From the NCBI GenBank assembly GCA_947088345.1, contig CAMUGE010000001.1, forward strand, positions 85,657 through 149,656: a stretch of 64,000 nucleotides of DNA. The letters are read 5' to 3'. The position numbers and the translations under genes were made by a program. Shown piece after piece: positions 38,601-55,193 of this stretch. This DNA comes from an uncultured Roseburia sp. Its GTDB lineage: Bacteria > Bacillota > Clostridia > Lachnospirales > Lachnospiraceae. Position 1 is the first letter of the stretch. Each line of letters starts with the position of its first letter. Below the pieces are notes generated by a model. It was not told the DNA's origin. It saw only the letters and a list, made by a program, of their open reading frames with translations, and searched no databases.

Positions 38601-39327
38601 AGAACAGAAAAAACAGGTAGAGACGCTGACGAAAAAACTGGGAGTTTCAGAGGAGACAGCAATTAAGATCCAGGCAGTGGGAGAGCAATACGACGTACCG
38701 GAACAGACGCTTTTGATCAGTGACAAAACGATCACAGGACAAAAATCAGAGGCGGATATCAAGGGATCTACGTTTGCAGTTCTTCAGGCGCGCGTATCAA
38801 AAACCACGAACACGCAGATTACGCTTAAGTGGACTAAAGTAAAGGGTGCGGACGGTTATCTGATCTATGGAAACAAGTGCGGTAAATCTAACAAATACAA
38901 ATTGATTAAGACAATTAAGAAAAACAGTACTACTACTTTCACGCAGAAGAAATTAAAGAAAGGAACTTTCTATAAGTACATTGTGCGTGCATACAAAGAA
39001 GTAGACGGTCATAAGATTACGCTTGCCGCGTCGAAGACGATCCATTTTGTGACGAACGGCGGCAAGAGCGGAAATGAGAAATCCGTCAGCGTAAACAAGA
39101 CGAAAGTGAACCTGAAAAAAGGCAGGAGCTTTACCATTAAGGCAAAGGCAGTAAAAGGTTCCAAGAAGATTGTATCGCACAGAAAGATCAGCTATGAGTC
39201 AGGAAATCCGAAAGTGGCGAAAGTGACGGCAAAAGGAAAAGTCACTGCGCTGGCAAAGGGCACATGTACGATCTATGTGTATTCACAGAGCGGATTATTC
39301 AAAAAAATTACAATTACCGTCAAATAG
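32644..39327 (+). CDS. Secreted multimodular rhamnogalacturonan acetylesterase (CE12-like SGNH) plus rhamnogalacturonan lyase (PL11-like) with FN3, Ig-like and beta-sandwich modules
   Basis: Signal peptide; SGNH blocks VSDST/GGRS/QFGHND/DNTH; PL11 motifs YSANDMSVGDVDGDG..KW, IRSGAHYTQF, QGNH, GHGDAMH; Ig-like repeats; C-terminal FN3 and Big_2-like domains. Confidence 0.9.
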   Translation: MRKKLSAYILAAAMAITGIVQTDAAAFGQNATDAAMERIAASGVDVTDTAKAEELGSESYKQITRETSTFVFGKDVTDKSGYSQAAGKGFSRVEFPNDAVGWDGGGSGKGVYHPREAVRTEGDTIYVAAADGALAISSRVWTEKESTGYGVYTYEETDTFDLDCASADYEIAVEFVNPGSAPYTAYVEAEDISRGYDYTEDANKNKVAVTNVTVAPGETKPITVNACVYDGQLNLKFLAASDATSRAGAAKQTVYVSEVTVTRKATEEAGAKPTIYLVSDSTVQSYTDYYAPQTGWGEVLCEYFGASDYKKTAKDCANSVRHESQVYETEHVIVENRALGGRSSASFIQEGLLDDVLEDVKPGDYLFVQFGHNDNTPSRPNRYVAPADFGKWIQTYVNGAIQRGVTPVLVTPVARYDYSTNSDGSLKSFNSGFAKYGAVMKEISKEQNIPLIDLTARTIAVCNKYGIEGSKTLFLHVAAGVYEGQYKNGATDNTHLQVLGAREFSKCVAQGLKAGKHPALSAIAQYVDVEMPPNAPENVHCVSPSEGETTLQHSVTIAWDASEGAESYIVYRRSSNGEFEKIAEVNTTSYEDSNDIATNIHHYYTVAASNSVGVGEQSDVCETPIAGSLTQANRETYSDRALTGIDLAGGKGAKTLLSATDADGNEYTSGVYLSWRSYEADFDAQNKLETTFDVYKGETKIASGIQVTNLIDPSGSAADTYRVVGSNDDTIGVTSKEIKPWNKQYLEFSLYAPADAVMPDKSKCTYSANDMSVGDVDGDGVLELIVKWYPSNAQDNSKGGYTGNTFLDTYKLDCSAGTAKLMTRIDMGVNIRSGAHYTQFQVWDFDGDGKAELAVKTADGTTTYKSKDGTAANLEKVTHVGAVDTDALPVGTQQSAAQHDHRNSSGYVLDGEEYFSFFNLDDGTKAGDEVEYVPVRGKVDDWGDSYGNRVDRFLSAVAYLDGENPYAVFCRGYYTRTTLTAYYYDRADGKIKTLWKFDTDKDGKSYCSQGNHGISVNDVDGDGKDEIVYGSLTIDHNGKALYTTGLGHGDAMHVSDWMPWRDGLEIMNVHEEGAAKYKAEIHDAATGEILMGYWIKEDTGRGAAADIDPTAPGAEWWTIAKPGYNGKPVWNSLDGAVMSTTSTLENTVMLADVNPPANFTLFWDGDLLSEIQDHNFNESNGYVPVGSNILKWDYENNRTEELLYSEEIWSNNGTKGNMGLVADILGDWREEIITRTTDAANADGSYIDANNKIRVYMTTIQTDYVVPCLLENLAYREGIAWQNVAYNQPANLDYLLSENVITAQLTAIDSDAKETKIGFTAANDGKYGHKIVGYTIYRADVDAEGKAGAYTKTETLTAEQLTAAEPGAQYDYVYTDTAVDYNKTYSYKIAAVVEAQGVIAGDSATAGQAVTRDSYLSRAVTADTPVDIASVDPVVLEDLVQGTPCESVADLLPKTVKVTDKDGNKADAKVTWDVSGVNLAEVGTYNVKAKIKGYAQEMSATLKVIANVMTDQSIKEFNIVKDKTDLYEVLPRTMTLKFLNGVEAEVTVIWDKESVEQIDTSVVGASYEVKGIWKNDEIIASDRTITITAKIVTNFIVSVEQVSVDVETGTGDLLAVLPKNVLATYQNGDQQQVEIVWSQEDLAKVDTTKPGAYEVGFTTDGYEGVFKAEIHVLYPTLHKFDFGIDPKLKDDGWTAITLNPKKGTKTIDELQLTYSDEKGYGFTDGTAVIEGRTETYTQEGIYSKNVYQDLAIPNPGNTFAVKVPNGRYQVLIMSGSQDKSRNVITGTLEGTVDVNVSSDSKTYTVGTFEVDVEDGRLDFTWTGKNGRTNMMIIRRMASMTLSKQTAELHPDETLELSVSYFRDEYNPEETAEGAVWSSDNESVATVDENGTVKAVALGTAVITAAKNDVKASCIVTVVPKSGGDDNPPGPGGDNNPPGPGGDNNPPGPGGDVTPPPGGDNNPPEPGGDVTPPSGGDITPPGSNLTEEQKKQVETLTKKLGVSEETAIKIQAVGEQYDVPEQTLLISDKTITGQKSEADIKGSTFAVLQARVSKTTNTQITLKWTKVKGADGYLIYGNKCGKSNKYKLIKTIKKNSTTTFTQKKLKKGTFYKYIVRAYKEVDGHKITLAASKTIHFVTNGGKSGNEKSVSVNKTKVNLKKGRSFTIKAKAVKGSKKIVSHRKISYESGNPKVAKVTAKGKVTALAKGTCTIYVYSQSGLFKKITITVK
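38407..38586 (+). repeat. Coding Gly/Pro linker repeat (7 units of 24-27 nt)
   Basis: GGDDNPPGP, GGDNNPPGP x2, GGDVTPPP, GGDNNPPEP, GGDVTPPS, GGDITPPG. Confidence 0.9.
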
Positions 39328-39352
39328 CTTTTAAACTGATCCGGGCTTAAAC

Positions 39353-39399
39353 AAAAACACCATACCCCTGTCATAATGAAGTGGGGTATGGTGTTTTTT
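39353..39399 (+). terminator. Intrinsic terminator
   Basis: AAAAACACCATACCCC ... GGGGTATGGTGTTTTT perfect 16-bp inverted repeat. Confidence 0.9.
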
Positions 39400-39525
39400 C
39401 GTAAAAGATACCGTAAATTTTTGTCTTTTTTCAGGAATGCTTGTCATAAAGGTAATTTTATTGTTATGATGAAAAGGAACAGAAAGCGGGGAGGGGGCAT
39501 CGTGTGAAAAATACGTTTTTCACAC

Positions 39526-39611
39526 GGCGATTTGTGTCTGCACTCTGCCTGCCACAAAGTCGCTTATGCGCATAAAGCGAATGCGAACTGCGTTCGCAAT
39601 GCAGAAATGGA
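39526..39611 (+). repeat. Dispersed palindromic leader repeat, copy 2
   Basis: GGCGATTTGTGTCTGC..AAAGTCGCTTATGCGCATAAAGCGAATGCGAACTGCGTTCGCAATGCAGAAATGGA, near-identical to 41945-42021. Confidence 0.9.
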
Positions 39612-39617
39612 GTATTT

Positions 39618-48444: not shown

Positions 48445-49518
48445 ATGGAGACGGACAACAGAAAGGCGGAACCGCTGCGCATTTTAATTGTAGACGATGT
48501 GAAAGCGAACCGATTTGTGCTGAAGAATATTATCGCCGATATGGGATATGAACCAGTGCTGGCAGAAAACGGTGTTCAGGCGTTGAAAATATTTCCGGTC
48601 TGTAAACCCAAACTGATTCTATTGGATATTTCCATGCCGGAGATGGACGGATATGAGCTGTGCGGTATTCTAAAGAGCAGCGCGCAGACCAGGGATATCC
48701 CGATTATATTTATTTCCGCCTGCGATAATCCGGGGGATATCATCAAAGGTTTTAATCTGGGCGGGGAGGACTATATTACAAAACCGTTTATTCCGGAGGT
48801 CGTAAAGGCCAGAGTTGGCGTTCACCTTAAGCTGTCCGAAGCAAATAAAAACAGCAAAGATATTAACCGCAGGCTTCAGGCGCTGATCAGTGAGCAGATT
48901 AAGCAGATTGAGCAGGAAAAAAAGAATGTGCTCTATGCGCTTGCGCATGTGGCAAGAGAAAATTCCTGTTATCCGGACGGGCATATCGAGCGCATCAGTT
49001 ATAACTGTCGTATTCTGGCACAGGCCATGCAGCTTTCCCCGTTGTATGAACATTTGATTTCGGATACCTATGTGGAGACGATTGTGCTGGCGGCGCCGCT
49101 CTGTGATATCGGAAATGTCGCAGTTCCCATGGAGATTCTTCAGAAAGAAGCTTTGCTGGATGAGAGGGAGCGCAAAGCGATGGAACGGCATACGACAATC
49201 GGAGCACAGCTGTTACAAGATATACGCTCAGACGGGGATTATAATGATTTTATCGATATGTCAATTGATATTGCATACTGCCACCATGAAAACTGGGACG
49301 GCAGCGGGTATCCGCGCGGTCTTTCCCGCGATGAGATTCCGCTGTCTGCACAGATTGTGTCGCTTGTCAGCAATTACTGCGCACTAACGGAAAAGCGCAG
49401 TTACCGGGGAGCTTGTGGCAGCAGGGAAGCTTTGGAGGAACTGCGGTGTGAGGCGGGCGTAATGTTTCATCCGGATATCTTCGATATCTGTTCGCGTGTC
49501 GCCAGACAGCTTCGGTAA
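48445..49518 (+). CDS. Response regulator REC plus degenerate HD-GYP domain (RpfG-like)
   Basis: ILIVDD..LLDISMP..ITKP; HHENWDGSGYP present but the HD dyad reads CD (APLCDIGN). Confidence 0.9.
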   Translation: METDNRKAEPLRILIVDDVKANRFVLKNIIADMGYEPVLAENGVQALKIFPVCKPKLILLDISMPEMDGYELCGILKSSAQTRDIPIIFISACDNPGDIIKGFNLGGEDYITKPFIPEVVKARVGVHLKLSEANKNSKDINRRLQALISEQIKQIEQEKKNVLYALAHVARENSCYPDGHIERISYNCRILAQAMQLSPLYEHLISDTYVETIVLAAPLCDIGNVAVPMEILQKEALLDERERKAMERHTTIGAQLLQDIRSDGDYNDFIDMSIDIAYCHHENWDGSGYPRGLSRDEIPLSAQIVSLVSNYCALTEKRSYRGACGSREALEELRCEAGVMFHPDIFDICSRVARQLR

Positions 49519-49526
49519 TAAGAGGA

Positions 49527-49790
49527 TAGCGTGAGAATAACTTCTAAAGCTCGCAGCAGATCCTGCTTCGCTAAGAAGTTCTAAGTCTCACGCCAGAGAA
49601 TCCCCAAAAACAGGGGATTCTCCGCGCAGATTTCAGTCGCGGCAGAGCCGCGACATGTTGGTAGCGTGAAAAGTACGTGTAAGGCTCATGCCAGAGGGCA
49701 TTTCGCCAACAAGTACTAAGTTTCACGCCGAAAAACGCCAAAAACAGGCGTTTTTCATCTTGATTTGAGATTCCGCGAAGCGGAATCATG
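49527..49790. repeat. Tandem pair of about 130-nt structured elements with compensatory base changes
   Basis: Units 49527-49657 and 49662-49790 share TAGCGTGA start, CATG end, AAAAACA loop and three covarying hairpins. Confidence 0.85.
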
Positions 49791-49798
49791 GGGGGCGT

Positions 49799-52522
49799 GT
49801 GGAATATATAGAATATCAGAGGCTGGTTCAGGCCAAAATAGAAAAAATTGTGTTGGCTGCTTATACGGTCTATGATCTGTGGATGACGTATGTGGCAATC
49901 GAGGGCGGATTTGGCAGCGCATATATTCTTATTTTTAATATGGGGCTTTTTATTGGCTGGCTGATCTATGCGGGACGGCGTAAGACATATTATTTCAGGG
50001 CAATGGTCATTTCGTGTATGATTCAGGCAGCAGTTGTCTCTTATGTAATACAGATGCCGGGCCTTGTGCGGTCGCTCTCCTTATACCTGACAATGATTAT
50101 TTTGCTTGGCCTATACGGAATCCCGGAAATTTTTTATACTACGCTGGTTTCTGCAACTGTGATGATCGTTTATCATGTCTTTCTATGGGTCAATGAAGCT
50201 GCGAATGACAGTGCCGGAAGTATGCATCTTCTGCTTCAGGTTGTATCGGTGTATTTTGTGGAATATATCATGTATTCTCTGGTAAAAAAGCAGCGGGACG
50301 CAAATGAACAGCTGCTAAAGACGATTGTAGATCTAAAGGAGGCTGAGCGGATCAAGAACGACTTTCTTTCTAATGTCAGTCATGAGATCAGGACGCCTGT
50401 CAATACGATCTGCGGGATGAGCGAGATTTTGCTGAGAGAAGAAATTTCAGAGGAGGAAAAAGACGGGATTACAAAAATGCAGAATGCGGGCAGAAACCTG
50501 ATGTCGATTGTAGGAGATATCCTTGACTTCTCAGAGCTGCATTCTGAAAAATTTGATCTTGCGGAGGAGACGTATAACATTACGTCTACGATAAATGATG
50601 TAATTAATATGACGCTGGCAAAGAAAAGCGAGAAAAATATTGAGCTGATTGTTGAATGCGATGCGGACATTCCTTCTGCACTGGTCGGAGACGAACAGAA
50701 GATTCGGCGTGTGATTTTAAATCTGGTCAATAACGCGGTCAAATATACAGATAACGGCGGCGTCGTATTTTCGGTCGGCTTTCGAAAGACAGAGTATGGC
50801 GGAAATTTATGCGTGACTGTCAAAGATACCGGAATCGGGATGCGGCAGGAGAGCATGGAAAAACTGTTTACCTGTTTCGGACAGGTGGATACAAGAAGAA
50901 ATCGTCAGGAGGGCGGACTTGGACTTGGACTTGCGATTTCGGAGGCGCTTGTCAGCAAAATGGGCGGGTTTATCACTGTCCACAGCGAGCTGGGGCGGGG
51001 AAGTGAGTTTCAGTTTGTTGTTCCGCAGAAAGTGAAAGAGGAGACGCCGATTATCTCCGTGAACAACCGGGAAAACTTAAATATCGCTACCTATATCAAT
51101 TTTGAACAGTTTAAAATGGTAGAGATCCGGGACGAGTATGCGGGCAGTCTCTTAAATCTGTACCGACAGCTTGGAGTGTCCGGACATTTATGCCGCAGCC
51201 TTGCAGAGCTGAAAAGACGTGTGGAACGGGAATCCTATACGCATATTTTTGTAAGCCTGATTGGTTATCGGGAAGATATGGCATATTTCGACAGGCTTTC
51301 AAAAGTATGTGAGGTTTATGTCATTATGAACCGGGAGGACGAAAATCCGGTAAAAGAAGCGCAGACAAAGATATTATATAAACCGTTCTATACGCTTTCG
51401 TTTGCGAGGATTTTAAACGGGGAGGATAAGGGCGGCGACGATTTCTTTCACAAAGATAAATTTATTTCGCCGCAGACGCATATTCTTGTTGTCGATGACA
51501 ATGTGATGAATATCAAAGTTCTGGAAGGGCTTTTAAAGCCGTATCAGATTCGAGTCAGCGCTGCGTTAAGCGGTCGGGAAGCGCTGGATATGATTACAAC
51601 GGAGGACTATGATCTCGTCTTTATGGATCATATGATGCCGGAGATGGACGGGATAGAGACACTCCAGCGCATCCGGGGAAAAAGCGGAAGCTATTTTGCC
51701 GAGGTGCCGATCATAGCGTTTACCGCAAATGCGGTGGCTGGTATGCGGGAAATGTTTCTGGAGGAAGGGTTCGCCGATTTTATTGCAAAACCGGTGGAAG
51801 CTTCCGTTTTAGAGCGCGTACTGCGCCGAAGAATACCGGAGAGTAAGATAAAACCCATTACAGATGCTGACCGGTTTGCGGACCATACCGCAGGGCAGAG
51901 AAAAACGAGAGAGCTTTCCCTTGGCGATCTGGATACGGAGCGCGGCGTTTCTTACTGCGGCGGCATGGAAAATTATCTCGAAGTGTTAAAGATGCACTGT
52001 ACTGAGGGGGGAGAGAATAAGAACAAAATCCAGCGTTATTTTGATGCGGCCGACTGGAAGAATTATACGATCCTGCTGCACGCTCTGAAAAGCTCCATGT
52101 TGAGTATCGGTGCGGTAACTCTTTCCGGGATGGCCAAAGAGCTGGAACTTGCGGGAAAAGAAAACAATACGGAAAAAATACGAAGAGACCATGCGGCAAT
52201 GATGGAAGAATACGAGCGTATTCTGGGTATTTTGCGCGGTAATGTTGTTCCGGAGTCAGAGGATATTCTGTCAGTCAGCGATATGCCATTGCTCACCGAT
52301 GCAGAATTTGCAGAGCTGATCAAAGCGTTTGAGGACGCGGTCTTTACGTTAGATGGCCAAAATGTGACCCGCGCGCTGGAAGAGCTGCAAAAATACAGCT
52401 ATCGGGGGCATTCTTTAAAAGAATTGTTGCAGCCGCTGGAGGAGAAAGTGGAGATGAGCGATTTTATGTCTGCCTATGAAGCAGTGTCAAAGCTTGGGGA
52501 ACAGCTTAAGGGGGATTTATGA
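49799..52522 (+). CDS. Membrane hybrid histidine kinase (TM-HisKA-HATPase-REC-Hpt)
   Basis: NVSHEIRTP, NLVNNAVKY, DTGIG, GLGLGL; REC VVDD..FMDHMMP; Hpt LLHALKSS. Confidence 0.92.
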   Translation: MEYIEYQRLVQAKIEKIVLAAYTVYDLWMTYVAIEGGFGSAYILIFNMGLFIGWLIYAGRRKTYYFRAMVISCMIQAAVVSYVIQMPGLVRSLSLYLTMIILLGLYGIPEIFYTTLVSATVMIVYHVFLWVNEAANDSAGSMHLLLQVVSVYFVEYIMYSLVKKQRDANEQLLKTIVDLKEAERIKNDFLSNVSHEIRTPVNTICGMSEILLREEISEEEKDGITKMQNAGRNLMSIVGDILDFSELHSEKFDLAEETYNITSTINDVINMTLAKKSEKNIELIVECDADIPSALVGDEQKIRRVILNLVNNAVKYTDNGGVVFSVGFRKTEYGGNLCVTVKDTGIGMRQESMEKLFTCFGQVDTRRNRQEGGLGLGLAISEALVSKMGGFITVHSELGRGSEFQFVVPQKVKEETPIISVNNRENLNIATYINFEQFKMVEIRDEYAGSLLNLYRQLGVSGHLCRSLAELKRRVERESYTHIFVSLIGYREDMAYFDRLSKVCEVYVIMNREDENPVKEAQTKILYKPFYTLSFARILNGEDKGGDDFFHKDKFISPQTHILVVDDNVMNIKVLEGLLKPYQIRVSAALSGREALDMITTEDYDLVFMDHMMPEMDGIETLQRIRGKSGSYFAEVPIIAFTANAVAGMREMFLEEGFADFIAKPVEASVLERVLRRRIPESKIKPITDADRFADHTAGQRKTRELSLGDLDTERGVSYCGGMENYLEVLKMHCTEGGENKNKIQRYFDAADWKNYTILLHALKSSMLSIGAVTLSGMAKELELAGKENNTEKIRRDHAAMMEEYERILGILRGNVVPESEDILSVSDMPLLTDAEFAELIKAFEDAVFTLDGQNVTRALEELQKYSYRGHSLKELLQPLEEKVEMSDFMSAYEAVSKLGEQLKGDL

Positions 52523-55193
52523 AAAAGAGATTTTTCAGAAATTTAATCTTGGAAAGTGATATGCAGTTTCGGGAACGCCTGTTTCGGATCATATTGCTTG
52601 TCTGTGCCGCGGTCTCGGTGCTTGCTATCCTGGAAGGGATGATTATGGATAATACCGGAATCGTAGTTGTTCCTCTCTGCGCGCTGATGGCGGTTGTGGG
52701 CGCTTCCCTGCTACTGGCATTTAAATATAATAAAACGGAGTTTGCATCAGTTCTTCTTGGCATTTATGTGATCTGTATTTTGTTTCCGGTTATTTTTTTT
52801 ATGAGCGGAGGCATCAAGAGCGGAACTATGATCTGGTTTGTGCTTGCGCTGATCTATGTGTTCCTGATGTTTTCGGGGAAGCGGCTGATTATTTTTCTTG
52901 TGCTGACCGTGGCATCCGATGTGGCGGTATATGCGGCGGGATATCTGCATCCGGAATGGATCAATCCAATGGCGTCAGAGCTTGAAGTTTATGTGGATTC
53001 TCTTTTTTCAATTTTTGTAGTTGGATTTTCGGTGGGGGCGATATTAAAGGTTCAGACAGCTGTTTTTGAGTATGAACGAGACAAAAATATCAGGCAGACA
53101 GAGGAGGTCGAAAAAATCAGCCATTACCGCGAATCATTTTTTGCAAATATCAGCCATGAGATTCGCACGCCGATCAATACAATTGTAGGACTAAATGAGA
53201 TGACGCTGCGGGAGGAGATCTCAGACGAGGTTGCGGAAAATGCGGTTAATATACAGAATGCAAGCAGCCTGCTGCTCTCCCTGGTAAATGATATTTTAGA
53301 TCTCTCACAGCTGGAAAATCAGAAAATGAAAATTATTTCGGTCAGCTATGATACAAAGAAAATGTTCGAGGAGATCATTCGTTTCATTCAGGTTCAGACG
53401 CACAAAAAACGTCTGGAATTTTATATTGATATTGACGGGAAGATTCCGTCCGTACTGTATGGGGACGAGCGGCGCATACGTCAGATTATGGTGAACCTGC
53501 TGACGAACGCCGTCAAATATACGCAGAGAGGTTCGGTCACGCTTGCGGCAAACGCGGACCAGATCTATAAGGACACATTAAAGCTGCGTATTTCAGTAGC
53601 GGATACTGGTGCGGGCATACGCAAGGAGGAACTGGAAAATCTTTACGACAGTTTCCGCAGAGTGGACGAGAAAAAAATATTCGTATTGAGGGGAGCGGAC
53701 TTGGACTTTCCATTGTAAAACAGCTGGTAGACCTGATGGGCGGTGAGATTACTGTGGACAGTATCTATACAAAAGGTTCGATATTTACTGTAGTATTGGA
53801 ACAGAAAATTATAGATACGGCCCCCATTCAGAATATTGTAGTGGCTGCCGTTGGAAAAAACAGGAAAAAAGAGGCATATTGGCAGAGTTTTGAGGCGCCG
53901 GAAGCAAAAATCCTGGTTGTAGATGACGACGAGCTGAATTTGATTGTGGCGGTAAAACTTTTGCGTGCGACGAAAGTAGCGGTCGATACGGCGCGAAGCG
54001 CCGCAGAATGCCTGGAACTGACAAGGAAGAGGCTTTACAATGTGATCCTGCTGGATCATATGATGCCGGATGTAAATGGAATCGAGGCGCTCTCAAGAAT
54101 CCGAAAACAGGAGAACGGTCTGTGCAAAGAGGCGCCGGTCATTGCGCTGACTGCGGCTTCATTTTCAGGGAGCGAGAGGGAGTATCTGGATTACGGTTTC
54201 GACGGTTATCTTTCAAAACCGGTGGATGCAAAGCTTTTGGAAGAACAGATTATGCGGCTGCTTCCGGACGAACTGATTGAGTATCGCAGAGAGTCGCAGC
54301 AGCCTGTGGAGAGTACGGATTCCATACAGATTATGGCGAAGCGCAAGAGAAAAAGGATCTATGTCACTTCCGACTGTGCGTGCGATTTACAGGAGAGCCT
54401 GCTGGAGAAGTATGACATCAGACTGATCTATCTCTATATCAAAACGGAACATGGGATTTTTAAGGATACGAAAGAGATTGAGTTAAATAATCTTTCCAAA
54501 TATCTGACGGATTCCGCGAGCACGGCTGCGGCCGTAGCGCCGTCTATGGAAGAGTATGAGGCATTTTTTGCGGATGTGCTTACGCAGGCGGATCATATTA
54601 TTCACGTTTCCCTTGCAAGCCATGCAGGGGAAAGCTATCATAACGCAGTGATGGCAGCGCGGGGATTTGGGCATGTGCATATTATTGATTCCGGCCATAT
54701 TTCCGGCGGACAGGCGCTTACTGTTTTGTATGCGGCGTCTCTGGTAAAAGACGGGAAAAATGTAAGGGAAGTCTGCCAGGCGGTAGAACAGGTGAAAGGA
54801 AAGATTTCTTCTACTTTTCTGATTCCGTCTGCCAAAATCATAAAAGACAACGGTTATGTTAATTCTGCCGTTACGAGACTGTGCGAGTGCTTCCACTGGC
54901 ATCCGCAGCTTAAGATGCGTCAGGGAAGGATTCGTTTTACCAATATCCAGATCGGCAAACTGGAAAATGCGTGGAGGCGCTATATCTGGCAGCAGCTGTT
55001 GTTTCCCAAATACATTAATGCAGATATTATTTATATCACACATGCCGGTTTAAGCGTGCGGCAGCAGGAGATGATAGTGCGCGAGGTAAAACGGCATATG
55101 CAGTTTCAGAAAGTTGTGGTTCACAAAGCTTCGGTATCATGTTCGGCAAACGGCGGACTCGGCTCAGTCGGAATTGCCTATATGACAAAATAG
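52519..55193 (+). pseudogene. Hybrid histidine kinase-REC-DegV fusion frameshifted at an A7 run (53671-53677)
   Basis: ORF1 has H, N and G1 boxes; one extra A restores KKNIRIEGSGLGLSIVKQLVDLMGG into ORF2 (REC, then DegV IYVTSDCACDL..HIIDSG). Confidence 0.85.

Follow-up and report, generated by a model that had tools for sequence, protein, structure and literature searches.

BOX elements of Streptococcus pneumoniae are high-copy intergenic repeats composed of modular sub-units in varied combinations and numbers; they have strong hairpin potential and are co-transcribed, and they are not known to have a transposase of their own. The REP/BIME sequences, the RAYT-associated REPINs and the ERIC/IRU repeats of Enterobacteria stabilise upstream mRNA. 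MIRUs were reportedly first described in the senX3-regX3 two-component operon. It is said that MIRUs insert at start codons and couple a MIRU open reading frame (ORF) to the downstream gene (PMC12548453). Here we describe an element found in a 64-kb stretch of DNA (64,000 nt; below, the window) from an uncultured Roseburia sp. of the Lachnospiraceae (assembly GCA_947088345.1, contig CAMUGE010000001.1, positions 85,657 to 149,656, forward strand). Two units of it, each with three hairpins, lie head to tail upstream of a hybrid histidine kinase gene, unit 1 at 49527-49661 and unit 2 at 49662-49798 (period 135 nt). They are probably two copies of a new interspersed repeat family that sits at operon junctions and is mobile or recombining. 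Their distribution refutes a riboswitch dedicated to the signalling operon. A unit of the family is 135–140 nt long and contains, in this order, a TAG, the bulged hairpin P1, the hairpin P2, the single-stranded linker GATTTGAG, the hairpin P3 and the motif CATGGAGGTTAG.

We assign the element to none of the MIRU, BOX, REP/REPIN and ERIC families; it works most like MIRU and is built most like BOX. Both MIRUs and the element are short non-coding units, single or in tandem, which occupy intercistronic positions in the sense orientation, and in both the translation signals of a unit interlock with the stop and start codons on either side, so that insertion is nearly neutral. The same low-cost insertion logic is applied to mycobacterial MIRUs in a review (PMC12548453). 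MIRUs differ in that they belong to Actinobacteria, have no evident sequence relation to the element, are 40–100 bp long and are not defined by three covarying hairpins. They also have a coupled small ORF, whereas the GTG ORF of the element is not conserved, and a -4 overlap where the element carries a full Shine-Dalgarno (SD) site. With BOX the element shares modular hairpin sub-units, a likeness which is architectural only; BOX comes from another host and, unlike the element, has no fixed relation to stop codons or SD sites.

REP, REPIN and ERIC sequences resemble the element as extragenic palindromic repeats in transcribed gene ends, with stems kept by compensatory changes. However, REP is a single palindrome of 20–40 nt with a GTAG-type head and a cognate RAYT and ERIC is one imperfect palindrome of 127 bp, whereas the element has 135–140 nt, three different hairpins, a stop codon and an SD site, and no RAYT was found in 613 kb around its copies with approximate queries. 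Palindrome-associated transposable elements (PATEs) derived from IS200/IS605 are also without terminal inverted repeats, have hairpins near both ends and insert strand-specifically by a short motif. They differ from the element in that its end hairpins (P1, 65 nt and bulged; P3, 19 nt) are unlike, its preference for stop codons is strong and no tnpA/tnpB was found nearby. In the classical test for a miniature inverted-repeat transposable element (MITE), the left end TAGCGTGARAAGTAC shows no similarity to the reverse complement of the right end CTAACCTCCATGATTC. The element is not a short palindrome of the REP type, and it lacks the terminal inverted repeats of a MITE; TAG is found at both of its ends and is conserved as part of the unit. 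Bacterial interspersed repeats are known as a kind; within them this would be a new family, with an unusually clean design reaching from a stop codon to a Shine-Dalgarno site.

A repeat family of gut Lachnospiraceae

One genome per GTDB species was scanned with the pattern AGCGTGA-N40-52-CTAAGTNTCACGCC, for which about 14 chance matches are expected by our own estimate. The scan yielded 59 loci, 58 of them true, with at most 9 loci per assembly, and the complete three-hairpin unit is present in all of them except one locus from Lentisphaeria (L019), which is without the structure. A covariance model (R1) built from 34 non-identical units was then used for search and found units beyond the reach of the pattern, namely diverged copies and solo modules. 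The genome-wide copies which the first-pass annotation had proposed to look for are therefore present, as 80 units (in 510 kb searched with R1) at 58 loci in 32 assemblies. Units lie singly or in tandem, with 8 tandem arrays among 72. The two units of the window are scored by R1 at 132.8 bits (E = 8e-30, unit 1) and 148.8 bits (E = 1e-33, unit 2). They are the only full units in the window, where one solo 3' module is found in addition, and the two conserved motifs have no further occurrence in the window beyond both units.

The true loci come nearly all from metagenome-assembled genomes and isolates of Lachnospiraceae, for the most part from mouse gut and otherwise from other animals. Judging from how often a second, independent insertion falls within an 8-kb locus, we estimate a density of about one unit per 35–40 kb, so that the genome of an element-rich species would have around a hundred, and in mouse-gut DNA metagenomes the k-mer depth of the element is 10–100 times that of flanking single-copy genes. 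On this evidence we consider it likely that the family represents high-copy, lineage-restricted, non-coding interspersed repeats of gut Lachnospiraceae (Acetatifactor, 'Roseburia', Parablautia, Kineothrix and relatives). A typical unit is also carried by a contig labelled Muribaculum sp. (Bacteroidota; L045), which is probably a mis-binned Lachnospiraceae contig and not a true occurrence outside the family. Another unit is found on a contig labelled Bacillota bacterium (L021).

The first-pass annotation had stated that the element could not be matched to a known riboswitch, and this agrees with the comparison with Rfam 15: the whole window gave no match for the element at the gathering score, and over 49400-49900 at E up to 10 a chance match to sroD (13.8 bits) was the only one. 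Plasmid and phage collections gave no match in the distant mode of blastn. The pattern scan of viral contigs gave three matches (one phage coding region) without the structure, which were rejected as chance. In the literature on Lachnospiraceae repeats and on MITEs with stop-codon/SD features no account of the family was found.

Organization of the tandem units

Both units open with TAGCGTGA (at 49527 and 49662) and have CATG after the third hairpin (49654-49657 and 49787-49790). Their parts are as follows.

49527..49661, + strand: unit 1, composed of TAG, P1, P2 (type without a U-run), linker, P3 and CATGTTGG (degenerate SD)
49527..49529, + strand: family-conserved TAG at the 5' end of unit 1, not the stop in use at this locus
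49529..49593, + strand: P1 of unit 1, with 8 bp, a 3' AAG bulge (49583-49585) and a 9-bp stem with one mismatch in unit 1
49596..49622, + strand: P2 of unit 1, GAGAATCCCC / AAAAACA / GGGGATTCTC, type without a U-run
49636..49654, + strand: P3 of unit 1, GTCGCGGC / AGA / GCCGCGAC
49662..49798, + strand: unit 2, composed of TAG, P1, P2 (U-run, terminator-like type), linker GATTTGAG, P3 and CATGGGGGGCGT
49664..49728, + strand: P1 of unit 2, with one G.A mismatch (GTACGTGT/ACAAGTAC)
49730..49756, + strand: P2 of unit 2, GAAAAACGCC / AAAAACA / GGCGTTTTTC, terminator-like
49769..49787, + strand: P3 of unit 2, GATTCCGC / GAA / GCGGAATC, with the conserved linker GATTTGAG just before it
49788..49801, + strand: 3' terminal motif ATGGGGGGCGT (family consensus CATGGAGGTTAG) as Shine-Dalgarno site, followed by the GTG of the kinase (49799-49801)

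Inward of its 9-bp stem, P1 of unit 1 has an internal loop AA/A, 3 bp, the loop TC (49551-49552)/TTC (49567-49569) and a 4-bp apical stem with its loop. Where P1 of unit 2 has the G.A mismatch, a near-identical copy in another locus (L016) shows perfect pairing. P2 of unit 2 resembles an intrinsic terminator, in that its G+C-rich stem leads into a U-run. The two units do not differ in the TC/TTC internal loop, the AAAAACA loop, the CTAAGT bulge region or the linker GATTT.AG. The TAG of unit 1 is unused as a stop because the upstream gene ends with TAA TAA (49516-49521), 5 nt before the unit; further stops inside unit 1 are an in-frame TAA (49545-49547) and a TGA in another frame (49532-49534).

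Two tandem structured elements had been reported by the first-pass annotation, and the starts, ends, stems, loops and paired substitutions that it listed are all present in the sequence. As boundaries of the units its starts hold, but its end of unit 2 has to be moved: the unit runs to 49798 and includes GGGGGG (49790-49795), which is the ribosome-binding site of the kinase with its GTG at 49799. The structure was recognized correctly, whereas the built-in 5' stop codon and 3' Shine-Dalgarno site, which set the element apart most clearly, were missed.

A protein-coding reading was rejected, since the units have stops in every + frame and neither a 72-aa minus-strand ORF nor the small GTG ORF is conserved. 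The former is a mechanical consequence of the repeat. The latter, starting from the GTG of TAGCGTGA, has 14 or 17 codons in most units and 6–44 in others and is open to the end in 9; neither the length nor the sequence of its peptide is conserved across units.

Conserved fold of the element

The RNA minimum free energy is -121.9 kcal/mol for the + strand (z = -7.75) and -129.8 for the - strand (z = -10.3), and none of 200 shuffles matched the native energy. Covariation was examined in an alignment (A2) of 34 non-identical family members, with 42 base pairs and 1392 cells. Watson-Crick or G-U pairing is found in 96.3% of the cells, while it drops to 45% or less in the control where the partners were slid by 1–3 columns. 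The covariation score of 0.376 (0.141 in shuffles) was reached by none of 500 shuffles. Selection on single-stranded structure had already been suggested by the first-pass annotation from the two units, and the family-wide covariation bears this out, with double changes on both sides in 25 of the 42 pairs (217 cells). Diverged copies covary at the base of P1, where GCGTGA/TCACGC is replaced by GTGTGA/TCACAC, ATGCGA/TCGCAT or ACGCAA/TTGCGT. Even the third base of the leading stop codon covaries: TAG occurs with the partner C and TAA with the partner T. Conservation is accordingly split, the three stems being kept by compensatory substitutions and the unpaired linkers and both ends by sequence. 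That the structure of the element is under selection is strongly supported by this family-wide covariation.

Position relative to genes

A unit starts at, or a few bases past, the stop codon of the upstream gene and shares the strand of the upstream ORF in 72 of 79 cases. Nucleotides 1–3 are TAG or TAA in 67/77 units, and at nt 19–21 this frame is closed again by TAA or TAG in 77/78. Of 65 first units, 29 have an opening TAG that terminates a long upstream ORF in frame; 5 more supply the upstream stop with the TGA at nt 6–8, and 12 are preceded by the native upstream stop at a distance of at most 45 nt. ORFs running into the element end at nt 1–3 in 29 of 36 cases, compared with the one third expected (p = 8e-9). 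The left flanks are purine-rich and SD-like; in the stop-codon copies they match the element's own 3' end at a mean of 2.8 versus 2.2 of 9 positions (p = 0.015), which is weakly above control.

At the other end, the consensus CATGGAGGTTAG forms a strong Shine-Dalgarno site 1–3 nt ahead of the next start codon or the next unit. A long ORF starts (with ATG, GTG or TTG) within 12 nt past the end of 20/59 last units and within 40 nt of 31/59. Where another unit follows, its TAGCGTGA places a GTG at the same spacing from the SD site as the start codon of a gene. The kinase start region GGGGGG-N-GTGGAATATATAGAATATCAGAG is also present in the orthologous locus L063. Some arrays lie beyond the last gene of an operon, ahead of a genuine terminator.

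In metatranscriptomes the element is joined to its flanking genes, which demonstrates transcription; the data are assembled contigs, which break at the repeat, and the ends and strand of the transcripts are not resolved in them. The abundance of the element in such contigs, together with the likeness of P1 plus a U-run P2 to a small RNA with a Rho-independent terminator, would suit tandem small-RNA genes, each made of P1 and a terminator P2 under its own promoter. We regard this as highly improbable: no promoter-like site is found inside or before the units, the units begin at the stop codons of upstream genes, half of the copies are without a U-run, and the RNA depth relative to the flanks is not above the DNA depth.

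A less remote but still doubtful reading is that of a host-domesticated cassette for RNA processing or stability, in which an endonuclease would cut the polycistronic mRNA and stoichiometry would be set at about a hundred operon junctions per genome. The enzyme would be either RNase III, cutting within the ~25-bp P1, or an RNase Y-like nuclease acting on the AU-rich linker GAUUUGAG that directly precedes P3. After the cut, P1 and P2 would guard the 3' end of the upstream fragment, and P3 with the strong SD site would guard the downstream fragment at its 5' end and promote its translation. Such a role is suggested by the sense orientation (72/79 units), the exact placement between stop codon and SD site, the conservation of stems as structure only and of single-stranded linkers as sequence, the transcription with flanking genes and the occurrence of solo P3-SD modules ahead of genes. 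It is opposed by the missing excess of G.U over A.C and by the greater stability of the minus strand (both given below), as well as by the finding that the element is dispensable in the close ortholog L063 and absent from 80 related junctions. Moreover, the RNA-to-flank depth ratio is not above the DNA-to-flank ratio, and hence there is no sign of a stable processed RNA. Since a cassette still requires a dispersal mechanism, it complements the explanation by a dispersed repeat and does not exclude it.

Flanking genes and junctions without the element

The neighbours of the two units in the window, outside the element, are the following.

48439..49518, + strand: upstream neighbour, response regulator with an HD-GYP-type HD domain (Pfam Response_reg and HD_5)
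49799..52522, + strand: downstream neighbour, hybrid histidine kinase (HisKA, HATPase_c, receiver, Hpt)

Elsewhere the neighbours are diverse. The genes downstream of the units contain 58 Pfam families among 37 genes and those upstream 79 among 48, none of the families occurring in more than three; examples of neighbours are argB-argD, mnmE-mnmG, the junction before gatC, ABC transporters, a T2SSE-type pilus operon, ribosomal protein L1 and glycogen genes. In a locus with a 99% identical kinase (L068, a strain) both units are present and identical at 280/282 nt. By comparison, in L063 (kinase 89% identical, same operon) there is a 42-nt spacer with a P3-like hairpin and an SD site, without P1 and P2. 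The orthologous kinase loci L064-L067 are without the element, and homologs of the kinase at 58% identity have an ordinary terminator and promoter region instead.

These comparisons decide against the idea, raised in the first-pass annotation, of a riboswitch or tandem cis-regulator of the kinase. A tandem riboswitch, or an attenuator of the hybrid kinase responding to a ligand or protein, would be consistent with the high degree of structure directly upstream of the kinase start, with the terminator-like P2 of unit 2 and with the tandem layout, which is known for some riboswitches. Nevertheless, many context-independent copies adjoin unrelated genes, an outcome which the first-pass annotation itself had named as refuting a riboswitch. 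Moreover, orthologous kinase loci (among them L063) lack the element, Rfam gives no match except the chance one to sroD (13.8 bits, E up to 10), P2 is without a U-run in roughly half of the copies, and many copies are located after the last gene of an operon. We therefore regard this explanation as refuted by the distribution and give it very little credence.

A filled and an empty junction can be compared at mnmE-mnmG. Related mnmE genes end with ...TGY ATG GGN AAR TAA, and in L022 the unit starts exactly at the stop position (...TGC ATG GGA AAG TAG-CGTGAG...), leaving the MnmE C-terminus ...CMGK intact to the residue; the native SD site persists 3' of the unit. No clean target duplication is seen in this empty-site comparison. 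In 80 metagenomic loci (486 kb) that encode MnmG 70–80% identical to that of L022, no unit was found. At one locus (L032) a 12-nt duplication of the native SD region is present on both flanks.

Two observations concern the organization of particular loci. In L036 (3000-5300) a T2SSE-type ATPase gene is followed by a series of small genes without known function, which are separated by four units or partial units, so that nearly every junction of this operon has an element. In L063 (1265-3342), as compared with 46370-47000 of the window, the LRR genes are separated from the signalling operon by an extra, oppositely oriented pair of a sensor kinase (HATPase_c_5) and a response regulator, which the window does not have.

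Modularity and variants

Two types of P2 prevail: the terminator-like type with a U-run (GGCRTTTTTC; 32/80 copies, including unit 2) and the type without it (GGCATTCTC; 36/80 copies, including unit 1). P3 is found in at least five sequence types. In MGBC123502 all four combinations of two P2-loop variants with two P3 types occur in one genome, which indicates exchange between copies. Solo P1 fragments and solo modules of linker, P3 and SD site are also found, one of the latter in the window.

42122..42161, + strand: solo 3' module, GAATTTAAG followed by a hairpin TCGCAG/TATT/GCTGCGG-like and CATGGAGGGG, before the in-frame ATG at 42162 of a subtilase ORF

The region of this module has a weak R1 match (42072-42159, 17.9 bits, E = 0.008). 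Its location directly before the ATG suggests that the subtilase/PLC-like ORF probably starts at 42162 and not at the listed 42078.

In L033 (2897-3052) and L036 (3473-3628) a nested insertion of ~18 nt with the palindrome TGTGACGTAAACGTCACA, 20 nt long, is located in the P2 loop and results in units of 156 nt.

Several known kinds of structured sequence were considered and rejected. Linked GAGAA/GAAAA variants had prompted the idea of an attenuator with an antiterminator formed by the 3' strand of P1 and the 5' strand of P2; only 4 bp are possible between them, and mixed combinations exist (L014, L051, L053). An integron attC site (R''/R' sites RYYYAAC ... GTTRRRY) does not fit by inspection, as GTTAGCG and GTTAGTG deviate from GTTRRRY, and the neighbours are ordinary operon genes; intI was not searched for. 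CRISPR and type III antitoxin repeats disagree with the anatomy of the element.

Possible origin and spread

In the explanation by a dispersed repeat, the element would spread among operon junctions and then duplicate in tandem. The spread could be due to a putative recombinase or transposase that acts on folded single strands. Alternatively, excised units could integrate by short homology at junctions resembling their own end-to-end joint, i.e. SD-like purines, TAG and a start codon. The SD-like left flanks and the duplication in L032 are compatible with integration or recombination at sites mimicking the unit joint ATGGAGGT-TAG-CGTGA and equally compatible with an unknown site-specific enzyme. 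The hairpins may be needed for spread on single-stranded DNA, may serve in the mRNA for processing, stability or attenuation, or both.

Several observations weigh against this explanation or limit it. Neither a transposase nor terminal inverted repeats nor an unambiguous target-site duplication came to light, and mobility is deduced from the distribution only. The identity of copies is only modestly higher within an assembly (82%) than between assemblies (76%), which is no proof of recent bursts. G.U pairs occupy 20 and A.C pairs 19 of the 1392 cells, which makes the wobble-pair test of the strand uninformative, and the minus strand is predicted to be more stable in 46/56 units because the conserved TC/TTC loop reads GA/GAA there. 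Taken together, these two findings would fit structural selection on either strand and on either type of nucleic acid. The units lie on the G-rich strand in 68/70 cases, and as they sit in Firmicutes the orientations to genes and to replication are inseparable. Finally, the strict conservation of the unpaired CTAAGT bulge, the TC/TTC loop and GATTTGAG would also fit a host RNA which binds a protein or an RNase.

The same strand bias, along with the absence of terminal inverted repeats, the TAG at the left junction and TTAG at the right end, and near-pure Watson-Crick hairpins without RNA-type wobble bias, can be cited for a non-autonomous element moved by an HUH (Y1) transposase of the IS200/IS605 or RAYT type, which would read the hairpins on single-stranded DNA and insert 3' of TAG/TTAG. 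The first-pass annotation had offered a REP/MITE-like substrate of such an enzyme; the dispersed element is supported in its general sense, the enzyme is not. No credible Y1 match was obtained by tblastn with approximate IS608 and IS200 TnpA queries in the 613 kb flanking the copies, a search that did not extend to whole genomes. The ends of IS200/IS605 carry similar hairpins, but those of the element, P1 on the left and P3 on the right, do not resemble each other, and P1 starts at the G of the terminal TAG, at the supposed cleavage site and not set back from it. Besides, a target consisting of TAG only would predict many random intergenic TAG insertions and not 29/65 at stop codons. An HUH transposase is in our opinion unlikely. 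Both this and the host function at the RNA level should be seen as refinements of the explanation by a dispersed repeat and not as exclusions of it.

The persistence of the repeat would be explained by its self-insulation. The 5' end would shut two frames within 8 nt (TAG and TGA), frame 0 again at nt 19–21 and the third frame usually within P1, therefore the upstream protein would stay (nearly) unchanged. The strong 3' Shine-Dalgarno site would restart translation of the downstream gene. With built-in stops and the 3' SD site, insertion between co-transcribed genes would thus cost little. The inserted element would be co-transcribed, and its hairpins probably modulate the operon mRNA: P1 and P2 could stabilise the upstream cistron at its 3' end or, where P2 has a U-run, be partial terminators, and P3 with the SD site could shield the downstream cistron at its 5' end and promote its translation. 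The pair in the window probably lowers or uncouples the expression of the hybrid kinase as compared with the response regulator gene, as a side effect and not as a dedicated signalling function.

More speculatively, the family could be a new class of self-insulating operon-junction element, transposase-less or with a novel recombinase, which homes to the joint of stop codon and SD site by mimicry and whose hairpins are a recombination substrate or a genome-wide device of mRNA processing and stoichiometry at about a hundred operons; we put this forward as a tentative idea that is rather less likely to be right than wrong.

Other features of the window

Two further observations were made in the window. 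At 41837-41950 (+ strand) Rfam detects group II intron domains D1-D4 (RF02001, 59.7 bits, E = 2e-9), between a terminator-like hairpin after the ORF 39618-41705 and the subtilase gene. There is no adjacent reverse-transcriptase ORF, and no other intron-domain family is found in 39300-42300; the match may be an intron fragment or an ORF-less intron. At 52519-55193 (+ strand) a histidine kinase-receiver-DegV gene is split into ORFs of 399 aa and 485 aa by a frameshift near 53700. In L068 and L063 it is a single ORF of 891 aa, and the split is either a pseudogene or an assembly error.

Implications

If the explanation by a dispersed repeat is true, the roughly hundred strongly folding segments of 135 nt per genome merit the label of a repeat family and not that of riboswitch or small-RNA candidates. 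The element would break short-read assemblies at operon junctions, and the family would mark the true ends and starts of genes, as in the example of the subtilase. It would also be of use as a natural intercistronic part, by which the stoichiometry of operons could be tuned, and possibly as a marker for strain typing, similar to a variable number of tandem repeats. Its spread without inverted repeats, and with no transposase found, would pose a testable question. For the biology of these Lachnospiraceae, the family would show how selfish DNA lives inside operons at little cost.

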